Assembly: GCA_044351795.1 (NCBI GenBank)
Contig: JBILFA010000002.1
Location: 13,838 to 77,837 of the forward strand
Source of the DNA: Bdellovibrionota bacterium
GTDB taxonomy: Bacteria > Bdellovibrionota_C > UBA2361 > OMII01
DNA length: 64,000 nucleotides
Direction of reading: 5' to 3'
The position numbers and the translations under genes are program-made. The notes under the pieces are model-generated. The model saw only the letters and a program-made list of their open reading frames with translations, did no database searches and was not told the DNA's origin. Below are positions 1,262-63,502 of the stretch, piece by piece (the first letter of the stretch is position 1; each line of letters opens with the position of its first letter).

Positions 1262-4200
1262 CTACATGACAGGGTTCGAGGCAATCTGCTGGTCTAGAAT
1301 AATCTTCTGCAACTCCAGAGCACGCTCGTTCTGCGGCTCAAAGAGCAATATCTTTTCGACCTCGAGTCGAGCCTGAGAAACCTTGCCTTGCTTGAACAGA
1401 ACGCCGGCAAGGGAATACAGCATGTCGATGCTCGCTGGGTGAAGCTCGAGGTAGGCATTCAGAAGGTTCTCGATCTCCCCAAAGCGCCGGAGCGGATATC
1501 CAAGCTGTAGAACTCCAAAGATAGCTCTGTGGTTCTCCGGATTCCTCTTGGCTGCTTGCATAAAGAAGTCGAAGGCCGTCTCCTCCTGGTTCCCTACCAT
1601 GGCACACAACCCTAATCCTGCAAGCGCTACGTCGTAGCCGGGCTCGACTCGGAGAGCCTCCTCAAACAAGGCTTTCGCCTCGGGCCATCGTTGGGCGTCT
1701 GCGATGAGGGCACCTTTTCCACACAAAGCTCTGGCGCACGCGGGATTCTCATTGAGAACTCGCTCGTAGATGAGCGCCGCTGCTCCGAGATCACCATCAA
1801 GCACCAAAAACTCTGCTTCGAGACACCTGGCTCGCTGGAGCTGTGACGTGCTCAGACCCGTCGAGGACGAGACCTTGTCTAATTCGGTCTTGGCCTCCTC
1901 AAAGAGCCGTTGTCGCTTGAGGTCCTCGACCTTCTCCAAAATACTCTCAAGGTAGCTATTCCCCTCTACTGTAGCTCTTGCCATCGGCACTGAAGTAATA
2001 GTTCCTGAGGTCGTCGGCACCTCTGGAAGTTTCACGTGCTCGCTCTCATGGACCGCGGTGTGCCTTTGAGGACTCTCAGAGTTAACTTTCCACTCCGTAA
2101 TCCTCTTCGAGAGCTCTGCCAAGGACTCCTGGAGCGGATTAGTCGGGAGCTGAGCGGATTCTGATTTCGCTTCATGAGCCCCACCACTCGGCAACATCCC
2201 CCTTCCGACCTCCACTGGAGATGAAACCGGCACTGTAGGATCTGCCATGGACACCTCAGATTCACGCTCTTTGAGCAGCTTTTGTAGTTCGAGAGCTGCA
2301 CCATGCGTCGGCGTAACATTCAAGACCTTTGTGAGCTCATCTCGTGACTGGCGTAAAAGCCCTTGCTTGAAGAGGCAGCCCGCGTAGCAATAGCGGATCT
2401 CTGTATCATCGCCCTTGACCGCCAGATACCGCTCGAGAACCCGCTTCAGTTCCTCTAAAGAGCCGAGCTGATATGCACATTCCATGAATTGATGTACCGC
2501 AACCAGATGATCAGGTGCGATATTGAGGGCACTGCGTAAGTACGGAACGGCTTCTGAATGCTTGCGATCCAACAACTCGCACATGCCTCGACCCGTCAAC
2601 ACCTTTGGATCTTCAGGATCTATCGTCAAGGCACGCTCGAACATGGCCTTGGCATCTTCTATCTTGGATTGCGCCAAATACACTGCTCCAATCGCCTTCA
2701 GAACACGGACCGACTTCGGATCCATTTTCTCGGCCTTGCGCAGATGCTCGAGAGCGAGATCGAACTCCATACTCTTGGCAGCGAGCTCACCTACCTCAAG
2801 ACTATCCTGAAACTCTGCCGGATTCATGCTCATGTCGTAGACGCCTGTCATTTTTGGACTAGCGTCTTGCCGAGAGATCCCGACAATTCGTTCGTACGCA
2901 AGAATGGTGGAGTCGATCGCTTTTTGCCATGTATGGGACCGCGCCATATCAACCAACCCCGGCTTTATCGGCGCATAGTAAGCGGCCATCACGGCAGAAG
3001 CGATTGAGTCTTCACTACCCGGAAGACAATAAAAGGCTTTATCTCCTACGTAGTCAGCTGTGGTGCCGGTACGGGTCACCACGATATTTTTCCCGTGTGC
3101 TGCAGCCTCGAGAGAGACCAACCCAGGCAGCTCGTACCAACTCGGTAGAACGTGCACTCGCGCGGCGGCATACGCAGATGAAAGCATCTCGGGAGAAAGA
3201 CGATCGAGGATCAAAGTCTTTCCCCTGCGCTTGAAGGAGCGAACAGCTCGCTCGTACTCCGGTTGATACGAAAAACCACCTGCTGCAAGCACTACCGTCA
3301 GATCGCTGTCCTCGAGAGCCTTGAGCAACATTAGCTGGTTTTTACGGCTCTCAATACGGCCGACACACAATACGAAGTCTTTGACTGCATACTCCTTCTC
3401 GAAAGCATCCGAGGTAGAAACAGCCCCTACCTCGTGGCCCAGCGGAATTTCAACTACATTCTTTGCTTCTAGATAATCACGCCGGAGAGCTCGTGCTTCT
3501 CCCGCACCGTTCGCGAAGAGCGCTGCTGCATGCTGAGCGATCCAGTCGCATTGGAAACGAGGAGCCCTGGGAACTGCAGACGAGTCTGTGCACGCGCTCA
3601 ACCACCAATCGTTGTTCTGTCCTCGATTTACGTACTCAACGAGGCGAGACGCTACGGCATGCGACTGGTTATGGAAATCGGGAAGATCTTCATAGAGGGT
3701 AGTAACGACGTATGGAATCCCGGCAGTGTGGGCTCGTTGGGCCAGCTCTCGGGTGTAGTCGACCGTGGCGAAGTTGAAAAGGTGTACGAGGTCGAATTGC
3801 TTCGGGTCTTGCATCGCATCGACATCAACGACTGCGTCCCATCCGCGGCTCATCAAACCGTCCCGCAGCTTTTCAAGAACCACTGTATCCCCTCCTCGGT
3901 GCGTGAAGGTGCTGGGGCGGTTCTGTATTAACACTCGGTTTTTTCTCGACGGTGTGTTTGTTGTGGTTGTCACGGTCTTCTCCTTACTGTGCTCCTCCCT
4001 CTTGAGCTCCCGCGGAGCTAAAGAAAAACCGAGCGATCGATAGATATCAGTTACACGTTCAGCAATTCGGGGCCAACAATTGCGCTCACAATACGCCCGC
4101 GCGGTACGCCCAAGCTCCTCGCGAAGCTGTGGATTTTGGAGTATCAATTCGGCTGCTAATCCCGGACCGTAGCCTGCGGTGAGGTGCCACACGGCATCAC

Positions 4201-5200
4201 CGAACCCCATCATGGACGGCGCAAGCGAGGTCATAACGATAGCTCCTGCGCCCAAAGCCAGCGCACATGCCCCGGAAGCCTCGAAATGCTGTGAGCGATA
4301 GTTCATGACGACTATGTCGGAGGCTGCTAGGTACTCCCCGACTTGCTCATCAGTAACAAACGAGGAAACGAAATCAACACAGTCACCCGCTCCATTGGAC
4401 CGCACTAGGTCTTTCAGAGCCTGTGCATACGCTTGGCTGTGTGGATCATCGGTGCGGGTCTCACCTACGATAAGTCCCCTCACCCGAATTCCCCTTTGCT
4501 TGAGATGGACAACCGCCTCAATTACGGCCTCCATGCCCTTATGAGGCTGAACGAATCCGAAGGCTGCGATAATCGGGGAGTCCTCGCACAGCCCTAACTT
4601 TTTCCGCAACGAACGCTTTGTTTCCTGCACCCCAGGTGCGCGAATAACTACACCGTGAGAAACAACTTCCACGCATGACGGCTCGCAACCGTTGGCGATA
4701 GCTTCCAAGCGGTTCTCGGGTGAGTGAACCAAGACCTTATCGGCGTTCGAGACGAGGTAGCGGAGATCTTCGGTAGACGTAAAGAGATTGTGGATCTGAA
4801 CGATCACCTTCGTTCCCAGACCGCGCACCTCCTTGAGGAATCGGGTGAAGGCGGGCTGAACGAAGAAGCGCGACTGGCAATTGAGGTGCAGGATCCCTAT
4901 CCTTTCTCGAAGGACGACCGCCTTGAGCTCTGAGTAATCGCCCGGTGAGACGCCTGTTCCTGCTCGAGTCCAGCACCGCCTTACGAACGGTTCATCCGGC
5001 TGTGTCGTTTCAATAACCCGTTCTGCTAACACCACAAACTCGTGAGAGGCGAACTGCTCGACGAGAAAGCGCCCATAGGTAGCCAGACCGCACACCTGAT
5101 TCCATGGCGACAAAAACCCTATCTTGGTCGGCACCAAGCCGTCGGTCGTGCTTTTAGGGCCCTTAACGGGCAACTGGCTACCAGCGCAGTGAGAGCTCAT
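1262..5200 (-). CDS. Multidomain glycosyltransferase: two tandem GT4 (group 1) domains plus a C-terminal TPR repeat region of about 490 aa
   Basis: 1312-aa ORF with an ATG start and a GGAGGGAGAAGG Shine-Dalgarno region upstream. There are two GT-B C-terminal signatures: FGFVQPHKG...EASGACALALGAGAIVMTS, and CVGRIESRKNQ...ELPGLVSLEAAAHGKNIVV. The C-terminal half is made of 34-aa TPR-like repeats (A..YLAQSKIEDAKAMFERALTIDPEDPK and similar). Confidence 0.8.
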   Translation of the reverse strand: MSSHCAGSQLPVKGPKSTTDGLVPTKIGFLSPWNQVCGLATYGRFLVEQFASHEFVVLAERVIETTQPDEPFVRRCWTRAGTGVSPGDYSELKAVVLRERIGILHLNCQSRFFVQPAFTRFLKEVRGLGTKVIVQIHNLFTSTEDLRYLVSNADKVLVHSPENRLEAIANGCEPSCVEVVSHGVVIRAPGVQETKRSLRKKLGLCEDSPIIAAFGFVQPHKGMEAVIEAVVHLKQRGIRVRGLIVGETRTDDPHSQAYAQALKDLVRSNGAGDCVDFVSSFVTDEQVGEYLAASDIVVMNYRSQHFEASGACALALGAGAIVMTSLAPSMMGFGDAVWHLTAGYGPGLAAELILQNPQLREELGRTARAYCERNCWPRIAERVTDIYRSLGFSLAPRELKREEHSKEKTVTTTTNTPSRKNRVLIQNRPSTFTHRGGDTVVLEKLRDGLMSRGWDAVVDVDAMQDPKQFDLVHLFNFATVDYTRELAQRAHTAGIPYVVTTLYEDLPDFHNQSHAVASRLVEYVNRGQNNDWWLSACTDSSAVPRAPRFQCDWIAQHAAALFANGAGEARALRRDYLEAKNVVEIPLGHEVGAVSTSDAFEKEYAVKDFVLCVGRIESRKNQLMLLKALEDSDLTVVLAAGGFSYQPEYERAVRSFKRRGKTLILDRLSPEMLSSAYAAARVHVLPSWYELPGLVSLEAAAHGKNIVVTRTGTTADYVGDKAFYCLPGSEDSIASAVMAAYYAPIKPGLVDMARSHTWQKAIDSTILAYERIVGISRQDASPKMTGVYDMSMNPAEFQDSLEVGELAAKSMEFDLALEHLRKAEKMDPKSVRVLKAIGAVYLAQSKIEDAKAMFERALTIDPEDPKVLTGRGMCELLDRKHSEAVPYLRSALNIAPDHLVAVHQFMECAYQLGSLEELKRVLERYLAVKGDDTEIRYCYAGCLFKQGLLRQSRDELTKVLNVTPTHGAALELQKLLKERESEVSMADPTVPVSSPVEVGRGMLPSGGAHEAKSESAQLPTNPLQESLAELSKRITEWKVNSESPQRHTAVHESEHVKLPEVPTTSGTITSVPMARATVEGNSYLESILEKVEDLKRQRLFEEAKTELDKVSSSTGLSTSQLQRARCLEAEFLVLDGDLGAAALIYERVLNENPACARALCGKGALIADAQRWPEAKALFEEALRVEPGYDVALAGLGLCAMVGNQEETAFDFFMQAAKRNPENHRAIFGVLQLGYPLRRFGEIENLLNAYLELHPASIDMLYSLAGVLFKQGKVSQARLEVEKILLFEPQNERALELQKIILDQQIASNPVM

Positions 5201-8245: not shown

Positions 8246-11047
8246 TTATCCCTTCAAACCAGCCTCTTCTCTCGTCATGCGAATAATTTGCTTACGAACA
8301 TGGAAGAGAAACAGCAACTTCTGCTCGGTTTCACTGAGCTTTCCGTTACCTGTAACGATATCCGAGATGAGCGCATCGAGCGTAGGCTCCTCTCCCCGGG
8401 CTGCTGCTACTTGGCAACGCTTTTGGAGTTCGGGATAGTTCTCACTACGCTTCTCCATTTTACTCCAAGGGCTTGAATCCTCTCGAGCCCTTAGCTGTTC
8501 GTACTTGGAGGCATAGATTACCGAGAGCATCTCCTCTATGCGCTTGTCATAGGTGTGATCCTTCAAAACTCGAGTACGTGCTTTTCTACTTATTTCTTCT
8601 CGCTCGTGAGGACGGGTCAGATAGTAGTCAATCTTCTCTCTCAAATCCGGCAAATCCTTGAATGTGACTATCTCAGTGCCAACATCAAACGCCTCAGGCA
8701 GCAGCGCTCGCTCATCTACGAGCTGGAAAGCTCCGCAACTCGCGAGTTCGAACGTGCGAGGATTCAAAAAGTCTCCATACGGCTCTACTCCATCTCGCTC
8801 CATACTGGAGTGAAGATTAAGATTGACGTCTGTCGCGTTGAAGATCTTCATGTACTCCTCAGGCGCGATACGGCGTGATTCCTCCTGGACCATCCGATCA
8901 AACGGCTTACAGAGCGGCCACTCACTACCCCAAATCTTGAAGGGATAGCTTGCCAGTGAAGCAAACATCTGTTGTCTATTGTGATAGCCCGCTCCGACAA
9001 ACGATACGGGAGATCCCCACTTTTCACGATCCTCTGCACTGACTACCATCGGGGTGTGAAGATAAGGGTCGCATGCGGTGGGAAGATAGTGAACTTCTCC
9101 GGCACCGGCCCTCTTGATGGCGCTTAAGCATTCACCTTTCTGAATCGTGAAGATAAAATCGTAAAACTGCGCCATCTCACGCCAATAACTGAAGCGTAGA
9201 TAGTCTTCGACGAACCACAACACCGTGATGACTCCACGACGACGGAGCTCTGTCAAAACCCGCGGGGTTATCGGAGCCTGTGCCATGCAGATGAGAATAT
9301 CGACCGGCTTCTCGGTAAAGCTCTCCAACAGTAGTTGCGAGAGCATTTCGACGTACGAATTCCGTATCATTCCCTTACGAATGTCAGTTGAGAGAAATTG
9401 GTCGACGAGGTTGAATCCATCGTTGAAGCCGCTCATATCAAAACGGCGAGTCCGTTGTCCCCAGCGCACAAGCGCATTGTTGGTATATAGACCTGTCGGT
9501 ATCGTGCCGCCTTGAATCGGACCGAGTACGCCGATCTTTGGGTGAAGATTCGAAATACCTCGCTTCCCGTAGAATGCACCCTTCCACTGCTCGATGAGTT
9601 TGGCATCAAGTGCTATGTTTTGCGGTCTCACCACGAGCTCCATACCGGCATCGAGTCTGAGACCGTCGGGAGGGCTGCCAACCTGTAGAGAGTGGATTTT
9701 CGAGAGGACGGTACGAAGATCCCTCGTAGATAGCGCCATCCGAAGCGCTACCATGTTAGGCTCCACACATGAGATAGGGAGTCCGGTTTTCTCGAGAAAC
9801 TTTTCGACGTGGTAGCCCAAACCAAAGCCCACCAGTAGAACGCTGGAGGCTTTCTCGAGTCGCGTCTCTCGCAAGGAGCGCCCGACCCACATCTCCGCCG
9901 CTGCAACAGGTTTATCCGCATGGTCGAGGCAGGTTCCTCGATGCCACAGTACCGGGCCCTGATCCGTTTGCCGAACTTCGAAAGCCGGATCGACGGTCTC
10001 GCCGAACTCTAGCATTTGAGCATACAGCACAGGAAATCGTTCCTGAAGGACTCGCAGATTCTGCTCGAACAGCAGCGCATTACCCTCGAGACGTACGGGC
10101 TCCGGTTTTGCTGAGGCGGGCACCTTACTCTCGGTCTTGCTCAAGATTCGCTCCAGGATATCGCTGATATCGATAGTGGCAGTGCGGCAATTCGAAACAA
10201 CATAATCGAGAGCTTGCCGCGCCCGCTTGTGCTCTCCTGCATCGGCGAGCTCCTCAGCGTAACGAAGGGTCATCCAGGCTTCGAGATCCAATGGCGCATG
10301 CTCCGCAGTAGTATCTGATTCGCCCTCGGGGAGTAATGCCTCTGCGATGCTGTCGGCGGACTGAGCGGCACATTCGGTCGGCTCAAGCGTCACTATGACC
10401 GCCTCCACTCCGTACTCTTTGAACGAGACCTGTATCGGCAGAATGAGCTCCTGTGATGTAACGACCCGCATTCCGGAGCGTTCTACTGCTTCTCGAAAGT
10501 TATCTAGACTATAGCAGCGCAGATGCAAGGTATCGCTTTCCGACACCCCCATGTGCTGTCCAAGGTACACCTGAAGTCGTACTATTCCAGACTGCTTAAC
10601 GACACGCTTCATCTCTAGCAAATATGACGCAATGACCTTGGTAGGCATGCTGGTCAAAGCAGCGTAGCTCCAGAGGAAATCGATCGAATTTGTTTCAACC
10701 GGCTGTAAGTCGAATCCTGATCCGACTACCAACTCTACGCGGGAATCAGGGCCGATGAGCTCGCGCGCTTTATCGACGGCGCGCTGCGAAACATCGAGGC
10801 CGACAACGCGGCCAAACTTCTTGGAAGCCGCTCGAAGCATGCGACCGACCCCGCACCCTATTTCGAGCGCGGTGCGATCTTGGCCAAAGGGAACTCCTTC
10901 GCTGACTATGGTGAAATCGCGCTCTCCCGTGGACCACATCTGCGTATCATCCTGGTATCCATCGCTCATCCAGAATCGGTAATCATGACTGACACGTCGA
11001 TCCCAGTCCTTACGCATCTGTTCCGCGAGTTTCGTCAATTTGCTCAT
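8246..11047 (-). CDS. Tri-domain protein: N-terminal class I SAM methyltransferase, a central Maf-like (motility-accessory-factor N-region-like) segment, and a C-terminal CgeB/DUF3880-type glycosyltransferase
   Basis: Methyltransferase motif I is ALEIGCGVGRML, followed by an acidic GLDVS. The middle contains FEQNLRVLQERFPVLYAQM...LLVGFGLGYHVEKFL. The C-terminus has NLNLHS...NPRTFELASCGAFQLVD...YYL...R..I..KARTRVLKDHTY, typical of CgeB-like Glyco_trans_1_2 domains. Confidence 0.65.
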   Translation of the reverse strand: MSKLTKLAEQMRKDWDRRVSHDYRFWMSDGYQDDTQMWSTGERDFTIVSEGVPFGQDRTALEIGCGVGRMLRAASKKFGRVVGLDVSQRAVDKARELIGPDSRVELVVGSGFDLQPVETNSIDFLWSYAALTSMPTKVIASYLLEMKRVVKQSGIVRLQVYLGQHMGVSESDTLHLRCYSLDNFREAVERSGMRVVTSQELILPIQVSFKEYGVEAVIVTLEPTECAAQSADSIAEALLPEGESDTTAEHAPLDLEAWMTLRYAEELADAGEHKRARQALDYVVSNCRTATIDISDILERILSKTESKVPASAKPEPVRLEGNALLFEQNLRVLQERFPVLYAQMLEFGETVDPAFEVRQTDQGPVLWHRGTCLDHADKPVAAAEMWVGRSLRETRLEKASSVLLVGFGLGYHVEKFLEKTGLPISCVEPNMVALRMALSTRDLRTVLSKIHSLQVGSPPDGLRLDAGMELVVRPQNIALDAKLIEQWKGAFYGKRGISNLHPKIGVLGPIQGGTIPTGLYTNNALVRWGQRTRRFDMSGFNDGFNLVDQFLSTDIRKGMIRNSYVEMLSQLLLESFTEKPVDILICMAQAPITPRVLTELRRRGVITVLWFVEDYLRFSYWREMAQFYDFIFTIQKGECLSAIKRAGAGEVHYLPTACDPYLHTPMVVSAEDREKWGSPVSFVGAGYHNRQQMFASLASYPFKIWGSEWPLCKPFDRMVQEESRRIAPEEYMKIFNATDVNLNLHSSMERDGVEPYGDFLNPRTFELASCGAFQLVDERALLPEAFDVGTEIVTFKDLPDLREKIDYYLTRPHEREEISRKARTRVLKDHTYDKRIEEMLSVIYASKYEQLRAREDSSPWSKMEKRSENYPELQKRCQVAAARGEEPTLDALISDIVTGNGKLSETEQKLLFLFHVRKQIIRMTREEAGLKG

Positions 11048-11483
11048 CGCTCACTATCCTCTCGACAAGCGCAGACTCCACGGCCCGCACCCATCACCTG
11101 CACCCGGTCACTAGGCCATCGGTGAACTTCACCACGACAAATCAACGCACCCTATCTAATTGAAATCTCTGGACTTGAGCATTCCGAGGCATCTGTCGCC
11201 GAGAACACCAGAGGCAGTTCACACTCGATGGGTACGAGGATACGTAAGACTTTTGATGCAACAGGGAACGATAGCGCTGCTAAATAAACGCACAGAAGCG
11301 ACAGCTACTCGGGAATCCGTCGTGGCGGATGTGTAATTACGGCAGGACCTTAGCTGCAACACACACTATCAACAACGAGCGGGAACTGTATATCTTCGCT
11401 CTCGTTGCGATTCTATGACGCTCGCTTAGGAACGCCTAACGCGGCGTCTTACAAGTTCCTTCTCCGGAAATATCAATCGTTCA

Positions 11484-11936
11484 CTAAAGTGATATCTGAA
11501 CTCGGCGGATAGCTTCTCCGATCTTCTCTGCCTCTTCCGGCGTGGAGAGAGCCGTCTCGCTCTTGGTACCTTCGATGATCTCCTTGTATGCAGAGTAGAT
11601 GGTGTCGATAAGCGCTATCACCTTTGCGATACGCTGCGGGTCACGGTACAGATTCGCCTCAGTGAGATAAAAGAGCATGAAATCGTAGAGCCTGTCGAGA
11701 TCGCGAGCAATTGTTCCACCCTTCTCGAAATCGAGGGTGTTCATGAGCTCAGCGATGATGGCCTGACCCTTACTGAGAAATCGACAAAATTTAGCGATGT
11801 CGTTCGCCTCAAGACCGGCCTTAGACTGCTTGAGAAACTTGATCGCACCCTCGTACATCATGAGGAGCAAACGACCCCGATCGGTCGTTGTTACTTGAAC
11901 AGCTTGATACGTGGCATGTGGGTTTTTCCCGTACAT
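11484..11936 (-). CDS. fliS: Flagellar export chaperone FliS
   Basis: YQAVQVTTTDRGRLLLMMYEGAIKFLKQSK...KGQAIIAELMNTLDFEKGGTIARDLDRLYDFMLFYLTEANL is collinear with the FliS family consensus over the whole 150 aa. Confidence 0.85.
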   Translation of the reverse strand: MYGKNPHATYQAVQVTTTDRGRLLLMMYEGAIKFLKQSKAGLEANDIAKFCRFLSKGQAIIAELMNTLDFEKGGTIARDLDRLYDFMLFYLTEANLYRDPQRIAKVIALIDTIYSAYKEIIEGTKSETALSTPEEAEKIGEAIRRVQISL

Positions 11937-12313
11937 AGCGTCCTATATCCTTAACGTTCTTTATCGCTGCGCTTGCCGTCAAATACTGCTCTTGGCCCTT
12001 GCGGCTTCCCGGTACTGCTGTCGCCGATATAGGAGCTATCGGAAATGGCTCAACATCGCTTGAGGTGAAACTTGCGAAGGAGAAATCACTTGAAAGACTA
12101 GATACTTACAGAAGCACTCCCGAGGGAAGCGAGGCGAAACAACGCATTTTAGCGGTGCGCTAGCACCGCTGCTCAACAAAATCACGCGTCAGCGTGGTTT
12201 TGCCTCTCTTCCCGGCGGATTGTTCTCAGCCGTTCGAGCGGACCTGGTAGTGTGGCCACCGAATGAAAACAGCTGTAAAGAAGAACTCACGCAGGCTCTA
12301 AAACAGCGTGAGC

Positions 12314-13117
12314 CTATTGACCTATCTCCTGAGCGCGAGCGAATGCTGCCTTGATAGCATCCTGCACTATCTCATCTGCTTTGCGCTGCTCAAGCACTGT
12401 GAGCGCCGCAGCGGTGGTACCTCCGCGTGAAGTTACGCGAGCTCGAAGCTCTGCGAATGTTTGGTTCGAGCTTTCAAGAGATGAGGTTGTCGCTTTGAGA
12501 GTTTGAAGCACGAGAGCTCGAGCTTCGCTGTCCAGTATTCCCAGTTCGCAAGCTACACTCTCCATCTGCTCCGCGAGCCAACAGATGTAAGCAGGGCCGC
12601 TGCCTGCTACCGCAGTTGCCGCATCAATTAAGCGCTCATCCTGAACTCGCCAGGATGGACCGATACACGACAAGAAATTTTCAATCGTCGCCAGATCGGC
12701 AGGTGTAATCTCAGTGGGAACCAAATACACCGTAGCACTCTGGCCGACAGTTGCTCCAAGATTAGGCATAGCACGCACGACCATTGTGTGATCGAGCAAT
12801 AAGCGCAGCCGCGCCAATGAGACGCCCGCCATAACCGAAACAACCACGGCGCCTGGGCACAAGACACTGCGAACTCCGATGCACGCCATCTCGGCATCCT
12901 GAGGTTTCACGGCCAAAACAAGGAGGTCTCCTGATTCAAGGCGACACTCTCCGGGGGGCCGATCTACGACCTCACACCCTTGGACTTCACAAGTAGTGGC
13001 AACCTCAGCCGGCTTTCTGTCGATCAGGAGTAATTGGGAAGGGTCGAATCCCGAACGAAGCACACTCTTTGCGAGTGCAGAGCCGAGGCCGCCGACTCCG
13101 ACCATGATGATTCTCAT
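12314..13117 (-). CDS. proC: Pyrroline-5-carboxylate reductase
   Basis: N-terminal Rossmann motif IIMVGVGGLGSAL. The C-terminal signature AGSGPAYICWLAEQM...RVTSRGGTTAAAL is typical of ProC. The start overlaps the yggX stop (TAATG). Confidence 0.85.
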   Translation of the reverse strand: MRIIMVGVGGLGSALAKSVLRSGFDPSQLLLIDRKPAEVATTCEVQGCEVVDRPPGECRLESGDLLVLAVKPQDAEMACIGVRSVLCPGAVVVSVMAGVSLARLRLLLDHTMVVRAMPNLGATVGQSATVYLVPTEITPADLATIENFLSCIGPSWRVQDERLIDAATAVAGSGPAYICWLAEQMESVACELGILDSEARALVLQTLKATTSSLESSNQTFAELRARVTSRGGTTAAALTVLEQRKADEIVQDAIKAAFARAQEIGQ

Positions 13118-22003: not shown

Positions 22004-22573
22004 TTAGGCAGCTAGATGCTGACCAAGCGCAGTATATTCCGTTGATTGGAGTGACTTCATATTCTCACTCAACTGAGACAACAGGTGCTGTATCGCATCG
22101 AGAGATTCAACTGCCGAACCGTTGAAGGTGAAGCGAAATTGAACGGTATTGATTGCGTTCTCGCTAAAACAGAGCACCACGGGACCGGGGCGCTTTCGCT
22201 CTGGATTCGTCCTCAAAATCAACCGGCGCGCGACCGAGATTCCGCCGGAATCAACACCGAACATCTCGGTCAACCATTCGGGTTGTTTACTCAGGGCATA
22301 ATCGAGAGAGGCCGCAAAGCTTCCCTTACCCCCCACCAACTGATGCCCAATCCCGGCAGAACGAGCCACCTGCACCGATCCGGTCTTGAGAGCCAGTATA
22401 GCGAGAGCTTTTACAGCAGTCGTCCACTGGAAAGACCCGACATTTTTGAAGGCTCCTGCCGTTTTTCCTCTGACGCTCCGCCTTTGGATTCCAAGACGAG
22501 TGTCTGAAAAACAGGCCTCTACCAATTCGATGTTAGTATCTCCGGCAAAATGTAAATTAAACGACCTTTGCAT
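22004..22573 (-). CDS. Uncharacterised protein, member 1 of a three-copy paralogous family in this window
   Basis: 189 aa. The AAGGAGG Shine-Dalgarno lies 9 nt before the ATG. It shares the motifs RGKTAGAf..vGsFqWttAV.A, AASLDYAL(S/T)KQP.W..EMFGV.S.G and N..RKR.GPV with ORFs 59858-60436 and 60557-62095. No known family was recognised. Confidence 0.7.
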   Translation of the reverse strand: MQRSFNLHFAGDTNIELVEACFSDTRLGIQRRSVRGKTAGAFKNVGSFQWTTAVKALAILALKTGSVQVARSAGIGHQLVGGKGSFAASLDYALSKQPEWLTEMFGVDSGGISVARRLILRTNPERKRPGPVVLCFSENAINTVQFRFTFNGSAVESLDAIQHLLSQLSENMKSLQSTEYTALGQHLAA

Positions 22574-22866
22574 AGTATGCAGCCTCCTTGCTCAGACTTT
22601 AACTCTGAGGACTATACCGGAACCCATCAGTCGAGCCGGGGGGATACGTTTTCAGAAACGGAGTCGGAAGTAATAGCGCGCAAGCTTTCAGAAGCCGCTG
22701 TCCGAGCTTGGCAGACTGCAATCAAAAGTCGTTTAACATTTATCCGCGTAACTCAAAGACGGGGGTTCTGTCTGGTTGCTTCAAGACCACATTCGGCACT
22801 CTTCCCCGTCTCTTCGGAGACTGTAACGCAACCTGTGGATGATCGTTCATTGCACGTGAGCATGCT

Positions 22867-23496: not shown

Positions 23497-25524
23497 TTAC
23501 GGCTGATCGTCTACCGCAAGCATTGTTGGACCCTCATCACCGCTGTCCTCGTGTGAAGCATGAGCTCCCTCATGTTCTTCGTACGAGGCACCCTCATGAG
23601 CGGAAGATCCTTCTTCTGCCACACCCTCACGAGGAATCGAGAGTGTCACGGCCTTCTTGACGAAGTACTTCTCACCCGAACCTGAAGCTTCGTGTTCACC
23701 GAGCTTGTCAATCACTTGGTTAGCAATTGCCTCAGGCACATCGATGAACGAGTAAAACTCACGAACGCTTACACGGTGAACATCAGAAGCCTCTACTCCA
23801 CAAAGACTAACGACATCCTGAGTCAGCCCGGCATCGGAGACACCGTGGTTCTTTCCTACACCGACATAGAGGCGAGCTTCCTTGTCTACTACCATCGGCT
23901 TACGTGGCTGCCGTGGCTGTCGCTCACGCTGCTCTCCACGCTCACCGTCTCCGCCGCGACGCCCACCACGCCGACCTTGTGTACCCTCTTCGGAATGAGC
24001 CTCGTAACCATCTCCTCCATCCCGATCGTATGAATCGGGCGAGCGTTCCTGAGAACGTCCACCACGGCGCCCACGATTACCCCGCGAATCACGCGAATCT
24101 CTGGAGTCACGCGAATCTCTCGATTCACGGGAATCCCTGTCGCGATCCCGCCCCTGTGGACCACGCCCGCCGCGTCGATCTCCGCCCTGAGGCTGCCGGC
24201 CCTCATCCTCCTCTTCGTCGTACTCCTGCACCTCATCGCGCGATGATGCCGCTGACTTGAGAGCCGGAATGACCGACAGAGTGTTGAAAATCAAGAGGGC
24301 CGCCACATCGCGAACCTTCTCATCGGCAAGTATTTTGTCGACCATGGCTGCGATGCCGGAGTCGTTGATGAGCGCCTTGTCGACCGCTTGCTCACGAAGC
24401 TGCTCAAACTTACCGAGAAAGAGTTGCTCAGGAGCAGGAAGCTCACCCTGTACAAACTCGAGCTTGCCGAGCTTCTTGAGGTAGTGGAAGTTCGAGATGT
24501 CCAGCGCTGCCACCAAGCTGATGACCTTCTTGGTCTGACTCTCCGGGCCCGCCGAATACCGATGAAAGTACACCTCTGGGTCGCTTGGAATGGAGTAGTT
24601 TACAACCACAGCGAAATCGTCGAGAGGAACGCCTCGTGCTGCCACATCGGTTAAAACGAGAACCGTAATCTCCTTCTTCTGAAGCTGCTGTATCGCTTTG
24701 CTCAACTTGAGTTGAGGAACGTACCCAATCAGCTTCATCGAGGCGATACCGCGCTTTCTGAGGATTACATCCGCAAAATCTGCGTCTGATGGCGAGTTAC
24801 AGAAAACTATACATGAATTCCCCCCCTCAAGTTCTATCAGATCACAGAGGGCCTGAGGCTTTGCCAAAAGGGATGTTTCAACTTCGTAATAAACGTGCTC
24901 CATATTCTGCACTGCTACTCCTTTAATCGAACAAGATTGCGGCTCTTTGAGAAATCTCCTGCTCAATGCGGAGATATTCAAAGAGGGCTCAGAACCAATT
25001 AATACAATCTGCGCTTCCGGATTGGACTCTCGGAAACCAAGCAAACACGACTCGAGCTCAGACAGTGACCCGTGCGAAAGAATCGAATCAACGCTGTCTA
25101 CAACACAACGATCTACCACTATCGATGCTGCTTTCGTCTTGAGAAACGCTACTACCGTGGAGGCAGAGGCAATCACACAAGCGCCTTCGGATACGAATGC
25201 GCCTTTGAGATTCTCAGGAGCAGGTGCCACGAGCGCATCTACTGAGAGAGCCTTCAACGAAGCCGCGATCCTTTCACCCTCCTCGGTAGATCCACATACT
25301 ATCAGAGCCTTCCCTGCGACTGCGGATAACCAAGCGCCGTACACAGCGGTACGCTCCGAGCCGGCAGCCGCGTACAGCTGAACGTCTCCTTCCTTTCCGA
25401 GATTCTCCAGTACTGCGATTTTCGCCTCACACGGCTCTTTACCATCGCTGCTCTGAAGTTTCGCTTTCGCTGCTTCGACGATCTGATTGGCTTCGTCGCT
25501 GCTGCGTGCTCCCATTACTGCCAT
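23497..25524 (-). CDS. DEAD-box helicase-like protein with degenerate ATPase motifs, an RG/SRD-rich linker and a C-terminal DbpA-type RNA-binding domain
   Basis: Collinear with DeaD/CsdA, but motif I is AAAGSERT, Ia is GSTEEG, TPGR is SAST, II is VVDSVD, III is GSE and VI is HRYSAGPESQ. Domain 2 (TDVAARGVPLDDFAVVVNYSIPSDPEVYFHR) and the C-terminal RBD (ARLYVGVGKNHGVSDAGLTQDVVSLCG...VSVREFYSFIDVP) are well preserved. The start was set at the ATG at 25524, 4 nt after AGGAGG. Confidence 0.8.
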   Translation of the reverse strand: MAVMGARSSDEANQIVEAAKAKLQSSDGKEPCEAKIAVLENLGKEGDVQLYAAAGSERTAVYGAWLSAVAGKALIVCGSTEEGERIAASLKALSVDALVAPAPENLKGAFVSEGACVIASASTVVAFLKTKAASIVVDRCVVDSVDSILSHGSLSELESCLLGFRESNPEAQIVLIGSEPSLNISALSRRFLKEPQSCSIKGVAVQNMEHVYYEVETSLLAKPQALCDLIELEGGNSCIVFCNSPSDADFADVILRKRGIASMKLIGYVPQLKLSKAIQQLQKKEITVLVLTDVAARGVPLDDFAVVVNYSIPSDPEVYFHRYSAGPESQTKKVISLVAALDISNFHYLKKLGKLEFVQGELPAPEQLFLGKFEQLREQAVDKALINDSGIAAMVDKILADEKVRDVAALLIFNTLSVIPALKSAASSRDEVQEYDEEEDEGRQPQGGDRRGGRGPQGRDRDRDSRESRDSRDSRDSRDSRGNRGRRGGRSQERSPDSYDRDGGDGYEAHSEEGTQGRRGGRRGGDGERGEQRERQPRQPRKPMVVDKEARLYVGVGKNHGVSDAGLTQDVVSLCGVEASDVHRVSVREFYSFIDVPEAIANQVIDKLGEHEASGSGEKYFVKKAVTLSIPREGVAEEGSSAHEGASYEEHEGAHASHEDSGDEGPTMLAVDDQP
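24084..24150 (-). repeat. In-frame 9/18-nt tandem repeat encoding (SRD/SRE)n inside the helicase-like gene
   Basis: On the minus strand: TCGAGAGAT TCGCGTGAC TCCAGAGAT TCGCGTGAT, preceded by CGGGATCGCGACAGGGAT. This encodes RDRDRDSRESRDSRDSRDSRDSRG. Confidence 0.8.
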
Positions 25525-26013
25525 ATTCCTCCTATGCATTTCAGTGGATAACAGACCTTCCGAGCTTATTCCGTCCAACGTATACCGGGCTACGATACGA
25601 ACGAACTCCCATCAACGAGGCTCAAAGGCTATACTCTGAAAAGATTACTATCAGTTAGTGCCTCACTCCGGTTTCCTGCATACGTACCGCTGAAAGAAGC
25701 GGCTGATACAATCATCCCGTTTGGGGCACACATGCTCCAGTACACCATACTCGTAACAGGACACAGAATTGTGCCAGGTCGATGAGATGTGTTTTTATTC
25801 GTTGGACTGTGTACCTACCTCTCAGATTGTAGATAGAGGGTAAATACTTACAGAGCGATACAGTGTCATGGAACCGCTAATCATTCGGTTTACTACCACG
25901 AAACGCACTGGCGATCGTTCTAAATTCCAAGAATGTATTCTATACCATATAGCCACACTTGCGGAAGTTTCGTCACCCGGATACCGCATCCAGGCGATAA
26001 AAATTTATAACCT

Positions 26014-59055: not shown

Positions 59056-59857
59056 CCACGATGAGCCAAATTTGGAAGCGTACAGTCAGCTGCAATAGAG
59101 GCTTGTACCGGGAGCGCCAACTCAGCGAGCACGAGAGGTTAGCCATAGCGACTACTGAAGCAGAGCAGCGCCTACAGGAGTTTGCAAATCGAGATCTGTC
59201 ATTCACTCGTAAAGCACAATCCCCACTGGCGGAGTTTTGCGTTACGCCTCTCAAGTGCAAGCAAGCCGTATGGTGTAGTAATCGGCGCGGTGGCAAACCG
59301 CTGGGTCAGGCAGCTCTACCATGAGCTCAAACTAATTGAACAGTAACCAATAGTGGGAATCGCCGTTCGTTACGGAGTACTATGGCGAGTATCGTGGGGA
59401 GGATAGTGCGCTCGATGCTACGGGTTCACTAGTTCAATAGTTATATGCCTTGATATGGCCGCAACTTTCATAGAAGCAACTATCCGTGATCGTACATAAT
59501 CGCGACTTTTTGAACGTGCGAGGCGCCGCCTGGTTGATGATTGGTTTTCGACCTTCGCGCTCGGGGCGCTACGGCGGACATGCTTGGCCCTTCCGCAAGG
59601 AGGGGGTGGTTCCTTAACTATTGGTACTTTGATCGAAAAAATTTCTACTTTAGTCGATTCCACCGGTCTGCTCCCCTTTGATCGACCTTGGGTAATGACG
59701 GGGCGGCTGAGACCTCCTTGCACCCAAGGGCTGTTCCCACAGGCACGTCAGCCGGACACTTTGAGTCTGAATCCAAACTGAATTCCGCTCAGGAATCAGA
59801 AGTGACTGCAGAGTGGTACTTGTTTCGAGTCACCTATAATTCAGGGAGGCTCTGACT

Positions 59858-60436
59858 ATGTCCAAGATTAAGCTAAGTTTTTGTTCAGGTAGCACGATTG
59901 AGTTGTTTCGAGTGGATTATTGCAATGGATCTGCGGTCGCTCTTACATGCGTGCGCGGCAAAACTGCTGGTGCCTATCGTGGAGTCGGTACATTTCACTG
60001 GTCTTCAGCTGTTCGGGCACTGACGTGTCTATTCCTACAGGCAAAGTTGGTTGATGAATCTTGTCGTTTAGAGCCGCTGTTGAGCGGTGGTGCAAAGTCT
60101 CTTGCCGCATCCCTTGATTATGCTCTCACTAAACAACCAAGTTGGATCGTAGAGATGTTCGGGGTGTCGTCCAGCGGGAAAGCTCAGGCACGAGGATTAT
60201 TTCGGGTGACGAATTCCCACCGAAAGCGGGCAGGGCCCGTCTCGATCTCTCTCAATTCACATGTATGTCCTAGGAGTTGCATTGAGGTCGTATTGGATGG
60301 GCGGCTGATCGATAACCCTGAGATCGTTCGCACTATGCTTGCAACGATAGAGGCGTATGGCAGCTCTGTAGGCAGCGATGGAGGCCCGGGCTCCAGCGCT
60401 GCCTGGCAAGAAGCTTCCGAATTAGTGGCTGCCTAG
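59858..60436 (+). CDS. Uncharacterised protein, member 2 of the three-copy paralogous family
   Basis: 192 aa. The GGGAGGCT Shine-Dalgarno lies 9 nt before the ATG, with the same GGAGGCT core and spacing as member 1. The motifs VRGKTAGAYRGVGTFHWSSAVRA, AASLDYALTKQPSWIVEMFGVSSSG and NSHRKRAGPV are shared with 22004-22573 and 60557-62095. Confidence 0.7.
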   Translation: MSKIKLSFCSGSTIELFRVDYCNGSAVALTCVRGKTAGAYRGVGTFHWSSAVRALTCLFLQAKLVDESCRLEPLLSGGAKSLAASLDYALTKQPSWIVEMFGVSSSGKAQARGLFRVTNSHRKRAGPVSISLNSHVCPRSCIEVVLDGRLIDNPEIVRTMLATIEAYGSSVGSDGGPGSSAAWQEASELVAA

Positions 60437-60484
60437 CGAGAATTCAAGAGTATCTTCAGGTCGTTAAGGGCAGAGAGATATAAG

Positions 60485-60518
60485 GCGCCTAACTTTCTGG
60501 GGTTAGGCGCACTTTTTT
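60485..60518 (+). terminator. Rho-independent terminator after paralog 2
   Basis: GCGCCTAAC-tttctggg-GTTAGGCGC (9-bp GC-rich stem), followed by ACTTTTTT. Confidence 0.8.
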
Positions 60519-60556
60519 CACTACAATGAAGGCAGAACAGGTATAGTGCCCGGCAC

Positions 60557-62095
60557 ATGCATCGGATGTCTTTAAAGTTCCTCAGCAACGACTCAAGTGC
60601 TGAACTCTTTGAATCTGAATTCTCGTGCTCCCTTGTGGGAAGAATTCTTCGGTGCGCTCGGGGGCGACAGGCCTTTGCAGATTCCCTTGAGGGGACATTC
60701 CAGTGGACCTCAGCGGTCCAGAGCATGAGTGCTGCCGCGATAAAGTGCAAACTCGCCGATCTCACCGGTGCTGGCCCGCAAGCAGCGGCTCTCTGTAGCG
60801 ACTCTACCTCTTGGGCTCTCTCCTTAGATTTTGCACTTTCAAAAAAGCCCCGCTGGTTGCTCGATATGTTCGGGGTTGATAGTTCGGGGATGCCGATCAT
60901 TAAGCGTCTCTTCATACGGATGAATCCTGAGAAGAAGCGACCAGGGCCTGCTTGGGTATCGATTAATCCGGCGTTTTTGAACCCGAGCAATATAGCGATT
61001 TTTCTTGATGGCGTAGAGGTTACGACATTATCGGAGCTTAACTCTCTCTTGAAACTCATCGGTTTAGAGGGCGAGCCATCGTCCGATCGTGAGAGCGGCT
61101 CTAGCGTGGTCTATATGCCCAAGCCGCGGAGCACCCTATTCGCAATGATTAAGAGGGAGGTCTTATGTGGACTGAACGATACCGCCGTGTTCTCAAGCGC
61201 CTCTACCAAGGCAACGCTTTCGTTGCTCGCAAACCACAACCTCTTTCGACACATCGGCGGTAAACCATCTCATCTTTTAGGAGATCTAGACCTTGGCTTG
61301 TCCGATAGCGCCCGCCTCGGGCTCGGCATGCCTGAAACGTGGATGTCGAAGCAGCTATGCTCGAAGAAACCTATCCGCATCCTTAGCGGCGTCGGAGCCG
61401 TAACTTCTCTCTGCATCTTCCGGTACCTCACTTCCGTCAAGGGTTACAACTTTGAGGTGTCGCACAATTTTAGCTCCAGTCAGGATATCATTCATTCTCT
61501 GAGATCGTCGGGAAAAGACGAGCTGGTGGACGGTGTGTTAATGGCATTTTGTTGCAGCGTCAGGCTATGTCAGGGACGAAGTAGCTTTTCACCGCTCGTG
61601 ATGATGCCAATTACGACCCATGCGGAAGTCTCGCGCGGAAAAGATGTAGCGCGGTATCTGTTTCTCACAGATGTCGTAACTGGATCTCATTTTCACCTCG
61701 ACGATGAGCTCCATTCGCTTGGGTACCAGCCTAGAGTTGAGCCTCTACCGTTCGCGGGTCTAGAGAAAGAGCTCGCGAAGCATTCAGATGCTCGTTCCAT
61801 ACTGTTTTGGCCCTACTATGAATATGCCAGCGGAAGAAATGAATGGATGATTAATGAGGCATTCAGTCGAGTACCAGCCTATGAACTCGTCACCCTGTGT
61901 GTTAACCACCGAATATCGCGGGATTCCAAATTAGCACTGGCTATCAACATAGCTATCAGAGATGCGTGGCTTACGCTCAGAACGAATCCAGTTGTTGTTG
62001 ATCGGATGATCATATCACTTCTCGATGATCCTAAGTTCGTCTCGGCATTTAGCAGGCTCGGCCCTGACCCTATAAAGCAGGCAGTAGGAGGCTGA
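60557..62095 (+). CDS. Fusion protein: paralog-family domain (member 3, ~175 aa) plus a C-terminal periplasmic-binding-protein-like (NMT1/NrtA/SsuA-like) domain
   Basis: The N-terminal domain has ARGRQAFADSLEGTFQWTSAVQS, ALSLDFALSKKPRWLLDMFGVDSSG and NPEKKRPGPA. The C-terminal ~330 aa show a type-II PBP-like alternation ending in LVTLCVNHRISRDSKLALAINIAIRDAWLTLRTNP..VDRMI.LL, with no signal peptide. A TATAGT -10-like box lies 9 nt before the ATG and there is no Shine-Dalgarno. Confidence 0.65.
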   Translation: MHRMSLKFLSNDSSAELFESEFSCSLVGRILRCARGRQAFADSLEGTFQWTSAVQSMSAAAIKCKLADLTGAGPQAAALCSDSTSWALSLDFALSKKPRWLLDMFGVDSSGMPIIKRLFIRMNPEKKRPGPAWVSINPAFLNPSNIAIFLDGVEVTTLSELNSLLKLIGLEGEPSSDRESGSSVVYMPKPRSTLFAMIKREVLCGLNDTAVFSSASTKATLSLLANHNLFRHIGGKPSHLLGDLDLGLSDSARLGLGMPETWMSKQLCSKKPIRILSGVGAVTSLCIFRYLTSVKGYNFEVSHNFSSSQDIIHSLRSSGKDELVDGVLMAFCCSVRLCQGRSSFSPLVMMPITTHAEVSRGKDVARYLFLTDVVTGSHFHLDDELHSLGYQPRVEPLPFAGLEKELAKHSDARSILFWPYYEYASGRNEWMINEAFSRVPAYELVTLCVNHRISRDSKLALAINIAIRDAWLTLRTNPVVVDRMIISLLDDPKFVSAFSRLGPDPIKQAVGG

Positions 62096-62109: not shown

Positions 62110-62898
62110 TTAGTCAACGATCCCGGCGGTTCTCTCAAGTTTAAAGAGAATAAACAAGGGAAAGCGAGAGCGAAGCTCCCAAAATTGCGGATCTAGTGCT
62201 TGGGCCTCAGCGACCGGCCCAGGCTCTGTGCATTCAACTACGGAAAGTCCCGCATCGCGAAATTCACGGAGCATCCCGGAGAAAGTTTTGTGGTAAAAGG
62301 ACGCCTCAAAGGTGCCACCAAATTTTGAGATAACGGGGCGCTCTTGGAGATAATCTCCAAACAGGGAGAGCTTTCCGCTCGCTTTGTCGACCTCAAAGCC
62401 TAGAAGCTGGCGCTTAGTTGTTTCGTTCTCGTCTTTCAAAGCTGCCCAAGAGGCGGGGTGATGGGTTGATATGACGATGCTACCGCCTGGAGCGAGCACC
62501 CGTCGCATGCCTGTTAACGTTGCGTTCCAGTTCTGTACATAGTGCAGTGCAAGGCTTGAAAACACCACATTGAACGATGCTGCTGCAAAAGAGATTTGCT
62601 CCATGTCCATCTCGTAAAATTCCAGGGCGGGGTATTGCTGCCTCGCCTGTTGAATATTACCCGCGGAAAGATCTATACCGACCACCTTTTCTGCTCCGAG
62701 AGCTACAAGGCGTGCACACTCCTCGCCATACCCACTTCCGACACACAGCACGCGCTTTCCCTCAACTGGGGGCAGGAGGTTATAGATAGCAGGTTTTTCC
62801 AGAAGCTCGTGCCCACTGCCTCGGATCTTGTGCCATGACGAACCCGCCGTGTCGTATTGTCGCATTACCACATCTTTCATTGATTCCAGCTCTGCCAT
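62110..62898 (-). CDS. Class I SAM-dependent methyltransferase (Methyltransf_11-like)
   Basis: Motif I is RVLCVGSGYGEE; the post-I motif is VVGIDLS; then FNVVFSSLALHYV and PGGSIVIST. The ATG at 62898 lies 5 nt after GAGGTG. Confidence 0.8.
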   Translation of the reverse strand: MAELESMKDVVMRQYDTAGSSWHKIRGSGHELLEKPAIYNLLPPVEGKRVLCVGSGYGEECARLVALGAEKVVGIDLSAGNIQQARQQYPALEFYEMDMEQISFAAASFNVVFSSLALHYVQNWNATLTGMRRVLAPGGSIVISTHHPASWAALKDENETTKRQLLGFEVDKASGKLSLFGDYLQERPVISKFGGTFEASFYHKTFSGMLREFRDAGLSVVECTEPGPVAEAQALDPQFWELRSRFPLFILFKLERTAGIVD

Positions 62899-63502
62899 AG
62901 CTACACCTCGACCTTCCGTGAGAGACGCACGGTAGATTCGTTTCACGGTAATTTCAATCGTATAATTGCCTGTACCAACCGGCGTTAACGGGCCTATGGC
63001 TAACGGTAAGGAATCATGGAAAAAAATTGGTTCAAAGTAGTCCGCTGCGGTCTAGCTACTTTCCCCTCTCAATTATCTCAGCTTCGGGAACCTCGGCGGA
63101 ACTTCTCCCGCATGAGATTAATCTTCAGTGTGAACGGATTATTGTCGCAGATCAAAACTCTCGCCTGTTGAGGCTGTATCCGCCGTATCATACGAGTCTA
63201 CTGGTGCTCGGTTACGCTATCGCTTGCCTAGATGCTGTAAATGGAGGCTCGTTCCAATCCGCAGTGCTACTTAAAATGGTGACGAGAGGGCACTGACTCT
63301 TGTTGGGTTCCTCCAAGAAGATCCTGTGCTCATTCATCGCAAGGGCACCTCCTCTGTCTCTGAAGATCATATCGCGCCATACTCAAAGCTCGTTCGGTGA
63401 GAGATGAGGAGACTGGTGCACGTCAATTAGGCCTGGTGGTGAAGTGGAAAGTAGCGACCTTAGACGATAGGCGTTGCTTCCTGAGAATGACGCGGGCAGG
63501 AT

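Follow-up and report, generated by a model that had tools for sequence, protein, structure and literature searches.

An undescribed N-terminal domain of modular proteins in uncultured Bdellovibrionota, with a tentative role as a signalling output module

Here we examine a family of proteins encoded in a 64,000-nucleotide (nt) stretch of DNA from a Bdellovibrionota bacterium (assembly GCA_044351795.1, contig JBILFA010000002.1, positions 13,838-77,837, forward strand), the whole of which is referred to as the window. Three open reading frames (ORFs) of the window, M1, M2 and M3, share a domain that we name X, which stands alone in M1 and M2 and is followed in M3 by a second, larger domain. These ORFs, together with a set of conserved motif blocks running through them, had been pointed out in a first-pass annotation made from the letters of the DNA, and both observations hold: the ORFs are as described, each is matched by a profile of the family at E-values well outside chance, and every block is found in the alignment of the three proteins, which are pairwise about 35% identical across their first ~180 residues. 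In window coordinates, the genes and the parts of M3 are as follows.

22004-22573, minus strand: M1, stand-alone X, 189 amino acids, C-terminus -HLAA (ORF; profile E 7e-76)
59858-60436, plus strand: M2, stand-alone X of the short-partner subfamily, 192 amino acids, C-terminus -ELVAA (ORF; profile E 9e-64)
60557-62095, plus strand: M3, X plus a C-terminal domain, 512 amino acids (ORF; profile E 4e-60)
60557-61093, plus strand: X domain of M3, residues 1-179 (profile E 4e-60; secondary structure as in M1 in the full-length model)
61076-61126, plus strand: linker of M3, residues 174-190, disordered, with a model confidence (pLDDT) below 50; length and sequence variable in the family alignment
61130-62071, plus strand: domain of M3 resembling type-2 periplasmic binding proteins (PBP2-like), residues 192-505, with a helical segment in front (Foldseek)

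X is about 170 residues long and is recognised by the motif blocks RGK..GA..GSFQWTSAV, SLDYAxSKQPxW..MFGVDxxG and NPERKRPGP. Some 20 of its positions, mostly polar or charged and located in RGK, QWT, SLDYAxSKQPxW and NPERKRPGP, are invariant and common to all paralogues, and its core is basic (median pI 9.4, net charge +4) while its tail is acidic. The domain had been described as falling outside known families, and this is where our searches leave it as well. Scans of M1, M2 and M3 against Pfam and NCBIfam gave no match at E<=1, a Pfam scan of 42 X members gave no recurrent match at E<=10, and X had no counterpart in PADLOC or PHROGs; searching PDB by sequence and by profile was equally fruitless, with 0 matches at E<=10 for the profile search. 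A word-indexed search with M1 retrieved 289 homologues, none of which carries a Pfam domain. A search of the literature turned up no account of the family, whose public copies all bear the name "hypothetical protein".

An AlphaFold2 model of M1, built from a 42-sequence alignment, reached a mean pLDDT of 88.4 and a pTM of 0.85. It begins with an N-terminal three-strand meander, followed by a long helix, a strand and two short helices that bear SLDYAxSKQPxW; the conserved basic loop NPERKRPGP then lies between two strands, and a small beta/alpha C-terminal part and a low-confidence tail close the chain. Foldseek searches with this model gave no significant match (best E 0.41 in PDB and 0.30 in BFVD, TM-scores below 0.25). 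As modelled, X is thus a previously undescribed, autonomously folding alpha/beta domain of ~170 residues, and it may be a new fold. The weak, non-significant structural matches included winged-helix and RNase-H-like or exonuclease proteins. An RNase-H-like identity was rejected, as the matches lie below threshold and the strand that would hold the catalytic aspartate has no invariant acidic residue. PilZ and Walker-A readings of RGK and DxxG were rejected for their misfit in spacing and conservation, and because M3 has RGRQ.

An exhaustive profile search of 1.84 billion representative sequences recovered 1056 clusters (50% identity) at E<=1e-3, of which 644 also pass E<=1e-30, and our census of architectures and taxonomy covers the best 150 of the 1056. 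X is encoded in 145 stretches of one-genome-per-species GTDB contigs, and 79 loci were retrieved. All 79 derive from uncultured metagenome-assembled genomes (MAGs), mostly from freshwater, labelled as Bdellovibrionota, Bdellovibrionales, delta-proteobacterium or just "bacterium"; they are held by 31 assemblies, with up to 5 retrieved X copies each. No genomes other than uncultured Bdellovibrionota MAGs were seen to encode X, and these have several copies each. Paralogues differ in syntenic context, each lying beside housekeeping genes of its own (e.g. those for SMC, an ABC exporter and TerB), and no neighbour conserved across all X genes was found in the retrieved loci. Only three IMG/VR contigs encode X, which makes an origin from phages or mobile elements unlikely.

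In all 98 long X proteins inspected, X occupies the N-terminus, and in 61 of the 98 it is followed by a C-terminal domain of the M3 type. The full-length model of M3 (pLDDT 85.6) resolves into X, a disordered linker and an alpha/beta domain, for which the best Foldseek match is TauA (6ssy; E 1.2e-6, probability 1.0, target-normalised TM-score 0.52). Effector domains of LysR-type regulators also rank high (OxyR, DntR, CatM, PcpR and MexT, with E from 2e-6 to 3e-5 and probability 1.0, and CcmR in addition), as do ModA, the VFT2 domain of BvgS, the PBP-fold enzyme MqnD, 3un6 and 3hn0. The proposal that this part of M3 resembles a periplasmic binding protein and that M3 has no signal peptide is therefore upheld, the latter as read from the sequence, with the domain lying internally after 190 residues taken as cytoplasmic; the model supports its description as a cytoplasmic domain of type-2 periplasmic-binding-protein fold. 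It shares this fold with the TauA, SsuA and NMT1 proteins, of which the relative NasS is also cytoplasmic, yet it differs from them in having no signal peptide, no family match at the sequence level (none to Pfam, LysR_substrate included), no conserved importer genes beside M3-type genes, where neighbours vary between loci, and in its fusion to X. When the domain alone was used as a sequence query for fusions to helix-turn-helix (HTH) domains, only X-fused close relatives were found.

Other long proteins exchange this domain for a different one. In the protein P0204, X precedes an FCD domain (residues 183-304, E 2e-24), a layout that is that of FadR with X replacing the winged helix; no protein of the window carries FCD. 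At three loci (L012, L023 and L060), X stands in front of an nSTAND1 NTPase (E about 1e-95) and an FGE-sulfatase domain, and a stand-alone X is encoded divergently beside the fusion. Further fusions join X to GTP cyclohydrolase II plus HAD, to an EgtD-like methyltransferase (Methyltransf_33), to TPR repeats and to several C-terminal domains with no family assignment. FCD and LysR-like PBP2 domains normally depend on an HTH, and a Pfam HTH was found in 0 of the ~66 long X proteins scanned. At L023 (2019-9888), the fusion of ~1270 residues forms an apparent operon with genes for a SIS-domain protein and an unassigned protein of 239 residues, as it does at L012 and L060; the divergent stand-alone X of L023 is followed by a phage-type integrase, and no reverse transcriptase of a diversity-generating retroelement was seen near the STAND gene of this locus.

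M2 and M3 belong to a conserved arrangement. A short X gene lies directly 5' of a long one in the window and at L081, L083, L088 and L089, and the two are divergently arranged at L034. The short proteins of the M2 type constitute one subfamily (63-78% identical among themselves, M2 included, with M2 63-77% identical to those at L081, L083, L088 and L089), the N-terminal domains of the adjacent long proteins a second (77-85% identity to M3), and the two subfamilies are only 30-35% identical to one another. The C-terminal domains of the long proteins vary, being PBP2-like in the window, L081 and L083 and of other, unassigned kinds in L088, L089 and the P0137-P0144 group; a constant N-terminal domain with swapped C-terminal domains therefore marks X as a nearly constant module carrying interchangeable C-modules. 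Two features separate the genes of the window pair.

60485-60520, plus strand: terminator after M2, GCGCCTAAC-loop-GTTAGGCGC, 11-bp stem and T-run (60485-60510)
60540-60547, plus strand: inferred -10 element of M3, GGTATAGT, 9 nt before the ATG, no Shine-Dalgarno sequence

Both had been noted in the first-pass annotation, the former as an intrinsic terminator and the latter as a -10 box of M3's own, and comparison between loci strengthens both. A hairpin with a T-run occupies the same intergenic place in the four other cassettes with differing stem sequences, and GGTATAGT is invariant in all five cassettes (window, L081, L083, L088 and L089), with an identical 9-nt spacing to the ATG. With the -10 element 9 nt from the start codon and no Shine-Dalgarno sequence between them, M3-type mRNAs are probably leaderless or nearly so, unlike the upstream short X genes of the cassettes, which have a normal GGGAGG Shine-Dalgarno sequence. 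M2 and M3 are thus a conserved cassette composed of a short X ending in -AA, a terminator, a -10 box and a long X, often with a methyltransferase. At L089, genes of the YcaO and nitroreductase families (10635-12746) lie 3.5 kb 3' of a cassette of short X, long X and methyltransferase, which hints at a peptide-modification cluster nearby.

Short and long forms also differ at their C-termini. Over their final ~20 residues, stand-alone X proteins vary in sequence, are acidic and have a low model confidence (pLDDT below 50 for the M1 tail), and they tend to finish in the same way: HLAA in M1 (22004-22012), LVAA in M2 (60428-60433), -AA in 101 of 200 database homologues, and AA, VA or AS in 130 of the 200. 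Across the retrieved loci, -AA ends 40 of 78 short X proteins as against 13 of 753 other ORFs (Fisher p 4e-35) and 0 of 13 long X proteins. A C-terminal -LAA or -AA is a ClpXP degradation signal in the ssrA tag and in CtrA, and the tails found here suggest, by analogy, a ClpXP-dependent turnover of stand-alone X. The likeness to ssrA-type degrons consists in a terminal -AA on a disordered, accessible tail in half of the stand-alone X sequences; the differences are that the long forms have no -AA and that a minority of the stand-alone proteins, roughly one in ten, finish with -(L/M)A(A/S)N(Q/x), which would mask an -AA signal. A reading of short X as precursors of ribosomally synthesised and post-translationally modified peptides was set aside, the tails being not rich in Cys, Ser or Thr and ending in the conserved -AA.

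The promoter regions of M1 and M2 hold the following features.

22651-22668, minus strand: direct repeat TCCGACTCCGTTTCTGAA (TCYGAA-N6-TCYGAA), 95 nt 5' of the M1 ATG, conserved in promoters of M1 orthologues
22611-22618, minus strand: likely -10 element of M1, GGTATAGT, in an inferred promoter; conserved in the orthologue at L001
22583-22589, minus strand: Shine-Dalgarno sequence of M1, AAGGAGG
59766-59800, plus strand: M2-type upstream element, TCTGAATCC-AAA-CTGAATTCC followed by the inverted GGAATCAGA; an invariant block in five cassettes
59835-59840, plus strand: likely -10 element of M2, TATAAT, inferred from a CCTATAA/CCTATCA block kept in five cassettes
59844-59849, plus strand: Shine-Dalgarno sequence of M2, GGGAGG

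The M2-type element reads TCTGAATCC-N3-CTGAA...GGAATCAGA; its exact pattern occurs only 5' of M2-type genes among 89 loci. Conservation upstream of these genes is confined to the last ~95 nt, which comprise the element, the TATAAT-like box and the Shine-Dalgarno sequence, and does not extend farther upstream; no Rfam family or tRNA was found within the window, the long non-coding stretch 5' of M2 included. Promoters of the M1 type carry TTCCGA-N6-TCYGAAA at the same distance as the M2-type element. A search of 2.1 Mb of strands met the general form of the repeat, TCYGAM-N5-7-TCYGAM, 25 times, in 12 cases within 200 nt 5' of X genes. A matrix scan placed 19 of its 20 top sites 5' of stand-alone X genes (187-201 amino acids), at a distance of 88-106 nt and in one case 150 nt, and its hits include sites outside the training set, at L012, L060 and L022. 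Altogether the repeat lies 5' of X genes in the window and at L001, L002, L003, L012, L022, L023, L050, L055, L060, L071, L075, L081, L083, L088 and L089. The short X genes that bear it fall into at least three subfamilies, only 35-45% identical, and hardly any other copies of it occur in 1 Mb of related loci; the long X genes and a subfamily of 170-180 amino acids are without it. Judged from this distribution, three or more subfamilies of short X genes are probably co-regulated through a tandem-repeat site centred about 55 nt 5' of the inferred transcription start, and a regulator that binds in tandem is the probable occupant of the repeat. Such a pattern would be expected from autoregulation or from regulation by X paralogues.

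Two methyltransferase genes lie beyond M3.

62110-62946, minus strand: class I S-adenosylmethionine (SAM) methyltransferase (Methyltransf_11/25/31/23), convergent with M3 and 15 nt away; an orthologue takes the same position at L085
63503-63796, plus strand: truncated methyltransferase ORF, 97 amino acids, with motif I only (IIDFGCGASG); local methyltransferase profile E 3e-10

A SAM methyltransferase and a methyltransferase relic had both been placed on the strand opposite to M3; the former is confirmed, whereas the relic, which is also called as a gene in the public contig, is on the plus strand. Around X genes as a whole, class I methyltransferases are modestly enriched (4.9% of first and second neighbours versus 2.2% farther off). 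The association is significant for the long forms only, with a methyltransferase immediately 3' of long X in 6-7 of ~14 contexts against a background of 3.3% (P about 1e-6 to 1e-7). They comprise one context each in the window, at its orthologue L085, at L081 (with overlapping genes) and at L089 (Methyltransf_15), and three at L040, including a SET-domain protein. In 12 kb of L040 (2458-13995), five X genes (two short, and three long with unassigned C-terminal domains) are interleaved with five methyltransferases (two Methyltransf_15, one Methyltransf_11, one Methyltransf_23-like and the SET-domain protein), and a cytosine/purine permease is encoded there as well.

To account for these observations we tentatively propose, as a possibility that could well prove mistaken, that X represents a new output module in regulators of the one-component type, where it would probably bind nucleic acid, with proteolytically labile stand-alone partners. 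X would be the constant N-terminal output module of lineage-specific one-component-type signalling proteins in uncultured Bdellovibrionota. In M3 the cytoplasmic PBP2-fold domain would bind a small molecule, in its relatives sensing would fall to FCD or to a STAND NTPase coupled to an FGE-sulfatase/lectin-like sensor, and the sensing module would control X via the flexible linker. The output would be binding to nucleic acid, likely promoter DNA, with X in the place of the winged helix-turn-helix. Long X proteins would then be functional analogues of LysR- and GntR-type regulators, controlling nearby genes (often methyltransferases) as well as the short X genes. M1 and M2 would act in trans as partners or competitors built from the same module, and their acidic, disordered tails ending in -AA would make them short-lived ClpXP substrates.

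The case for X as an output module rests on its constant N-terminal position, on the interchangeable ligand-binding and NTPase-sensor partners, on there being no other output domain in these proteins, and on its high conservation. The exchange of C-terminal domains behind M3-type N-terminal domains that stay 77-85% identical is what an unchanging output served by variable sensors would show. An output or effector role with stand-alone copies acting in trans had been suggested before, and it fits the census of architectures, in which X precedes the sensors. Within that role DNA binding is favoured because FCD and LysR-like layouts normally need a DNA-binding domain, because the core of X is basic, because X genes have an upstream repeat of their own, and because regulators commonly adjoin the enzyme genes that they control. 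The resemblance to LysR and GntR/FadR regulators covers both the layout of the protein (an output domain at the N-terminus, joined by a linker to a C-terminal ligand-binding domain of PBP2 fold or FCD type) and the position of its gene beside enzyme genes. For LysR it holds at the level of the fold, since the C-terminal domain of M3 does not match LysR_substrate, and X itself differs from the DNA-binding domains of these regulators in being a 170-residue alpha/beta domain that matches neither HTH_1 nor GntR.

Several observations weigh against this proposal. Foldseek searches of PDB and BFVD recognised no DNA-binding fold in X, and the invariance of its polar residues across paralogues looks more like a common ligand, active site or protein partner than like diversified DNA recognition. 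Inspection by eye alone suggests a segment resembling a winged helix behind the X of one group of long proteins, the P0139 type. An unrelated regulator might be what binds the upstream element, and the link to methyltransferases, as yet unexplained, counts against the proposal too. The fold of the M3 C-terminal domain does not tell sensing from catalysis, and the domain could be an enzyme; MqnD and THI5 are precedents of enzymes with this fold. Finally, the N-terminal position in STAND-FGE-sulfatase proteins is normally taken by effectors or by multi-copy effector-associated adaptor domains, and not by DNA-binding domains (PMC8195603).

Some of these points lead to a different reading, unlikely in our judgement and still deserving serious consideration, in which X is an enzymatic or small-ligand-binding effector, e.g. 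one binding or acting upon a nucleotide or a SAM-related metabolite, gated by a sensor or by oligomerisation in the manner of TIR domains, and in which long X proteins and the neighbouring methyltransferases form pathways of small-molecule modification. The invariant Arg, Lys, Asp, Ser, Asn, Glu, Trp and Tyr residues common to all paralogues would suit it, as would the fusions to GTP cyclohydrolase II plus HAD and to the EgtD-like methyltransferase, the frequency of methyltransferases directly 3' of long X, and the interleaving of X and methyltransferase genes at L040. The N-terminus of conflict-system STAND proteins is often an enzymatic effector (PMC8195603), and a PBP2-fold enzyme, MqnD, is among the structural matches of the M3 domain. 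However, neither profile nor Foldseek searches revealed a similarity of X to a known enzyme fold or nucleotide-binding motif, the fusion to FCD has no precedent for enzymatic outputs, stand-alone X proteins are numerous and apparently unregulated save by turnover, and the association with methyltransferases is weak when all X genes are considered.

A further reading, likewise unlikely though the STAND fusions speak for it, makes X an adaptor that works by homotypic interaction and corresponds in function to the effector-associated domains (EADs) and Death-like domains of bacterial STAND conflict systems. Association between X domains would then gather X-tagged proteins (stand-alone X, X-PBP2 and X-enzyme fusions) with one another or at an activated STAND oligomer, and the M2-M3 cassette would encode an obligate heteromer. 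X does resemble the EADs of STAND-FGE-sulfatase systems (Kaur, Burroughs, Iyer and Aravind 2021, PMC8195603), which typically hold the N-terminus of the NTPase and occur in several gene copies: it is N-terminal on the NTPase at L012, L023 and L060 with a divergent stand-alone copy adjoining, genomes contain many paralogues, which cluster (five at L040), and short and long forms lie side by side as co-evolving subfamilies. EADs, however, are non-catalytic, small and little conserved, whereas X comprises 170 residues, among them ~20 invariant and mostly polar or charged positions, and it lies mostly outside STAND contexts, amid housekeeping genes with no STAND gene nearby. Its partners (PBP2, FCD, GTP cyclohydrolase II/HAD and methyltransferase) are ligand-binding or metabolic domains and not the usual conflict effectors, whereas EAD copies are fused to TIR, caspase, trypsin and nuclease domains, and X matches none of the Pfam EAD and Death-like models (EAD, bDLD and TRADD-N families).

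Least of all, and very improbable, is a conflict- or toxin-type polymorphic system, in which X would deliver or activate variable C-terminal payloads (toxic or sensing), a labile short X would neutralise them and the downstream gene would provide immunity or modification: the constant N-terminal domain with swapped C-terminal domains, the variable downstream gene, the short partner with its -AA tail and the STAND fusion beside a phage-type integrase recall such systems, but the recognised C-terminal domains (PBP2, FCD) are ligand binders and not toxins, there are no secretion signals, secretion-system neighbours or PADLOC matches, viral contigs hardly ever encode X (3 loci), and most loci are syntenic chromosomal sites and not islands.

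The X domain is undescribed, while the logic in which it is embedded, an output module with swappable sensors, STAND fusions and labile partners, is already known. There is, in our estimation, somewhat less than an even chance that X is a new fold that defines a new class of signal output, acting either as a DNA binder in place of the HTH or as an oligomerising effector or adaptor on the logic of TIR and Death domains, with labile paralogues and a regulon marked by a dedicated cis-element, and confined to an uncultured lineage of Bdellovibrionota; that the mechanism of output is itself new we rate similarly, as plausible and yet not quite evenly balanced. One-component regulators and STAND NTPases use a limited and well-catalogued set of output domains, to which X would add one, possibly of new fold. 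Several "hypothetical" genes in each genome of uncultured freshwater Bdellovibrionota would thereby take their place in a recognisable signalling network, for which regulatory sites and proteolytic control are predicted, and the link to methyltransferases offers a concrete handle on what this network controls.

The remaining genes of the window look like those of an ordinary chromosome, encoding e.g. PheT, an MFS transporter, a DbpA-type helicase, glycosyltransferases and an ABC exporter. The helicase ORF (23497-25578, minus strand) contains Helicase_C and the DbpA RNA-binding domain, with a long low-complexity RD/RG/SRD insert preceding the latter, and gave no match to a DEAD-box domain at E<=0.01. 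A 1312-residue protein (1262-5200, minus strand) combines two GT4 glycosyltransferase regions with many TPR repeats, and its match to the 'GT4-conflict' model lies below threshold. In the public contig that carries M3, 2-8 kb past the right end of the window, there is a gene set typical of the uracil-catabolism (URC) pathway, comprising a GTP cyclohydrolase II-like protein, DUF1688, uracil phosphoribosyltransferase and an aldehyde dehydrogenase; as some X proteins are fused to GTP cyclohydrolase II, a link between X and this set is conceivable.

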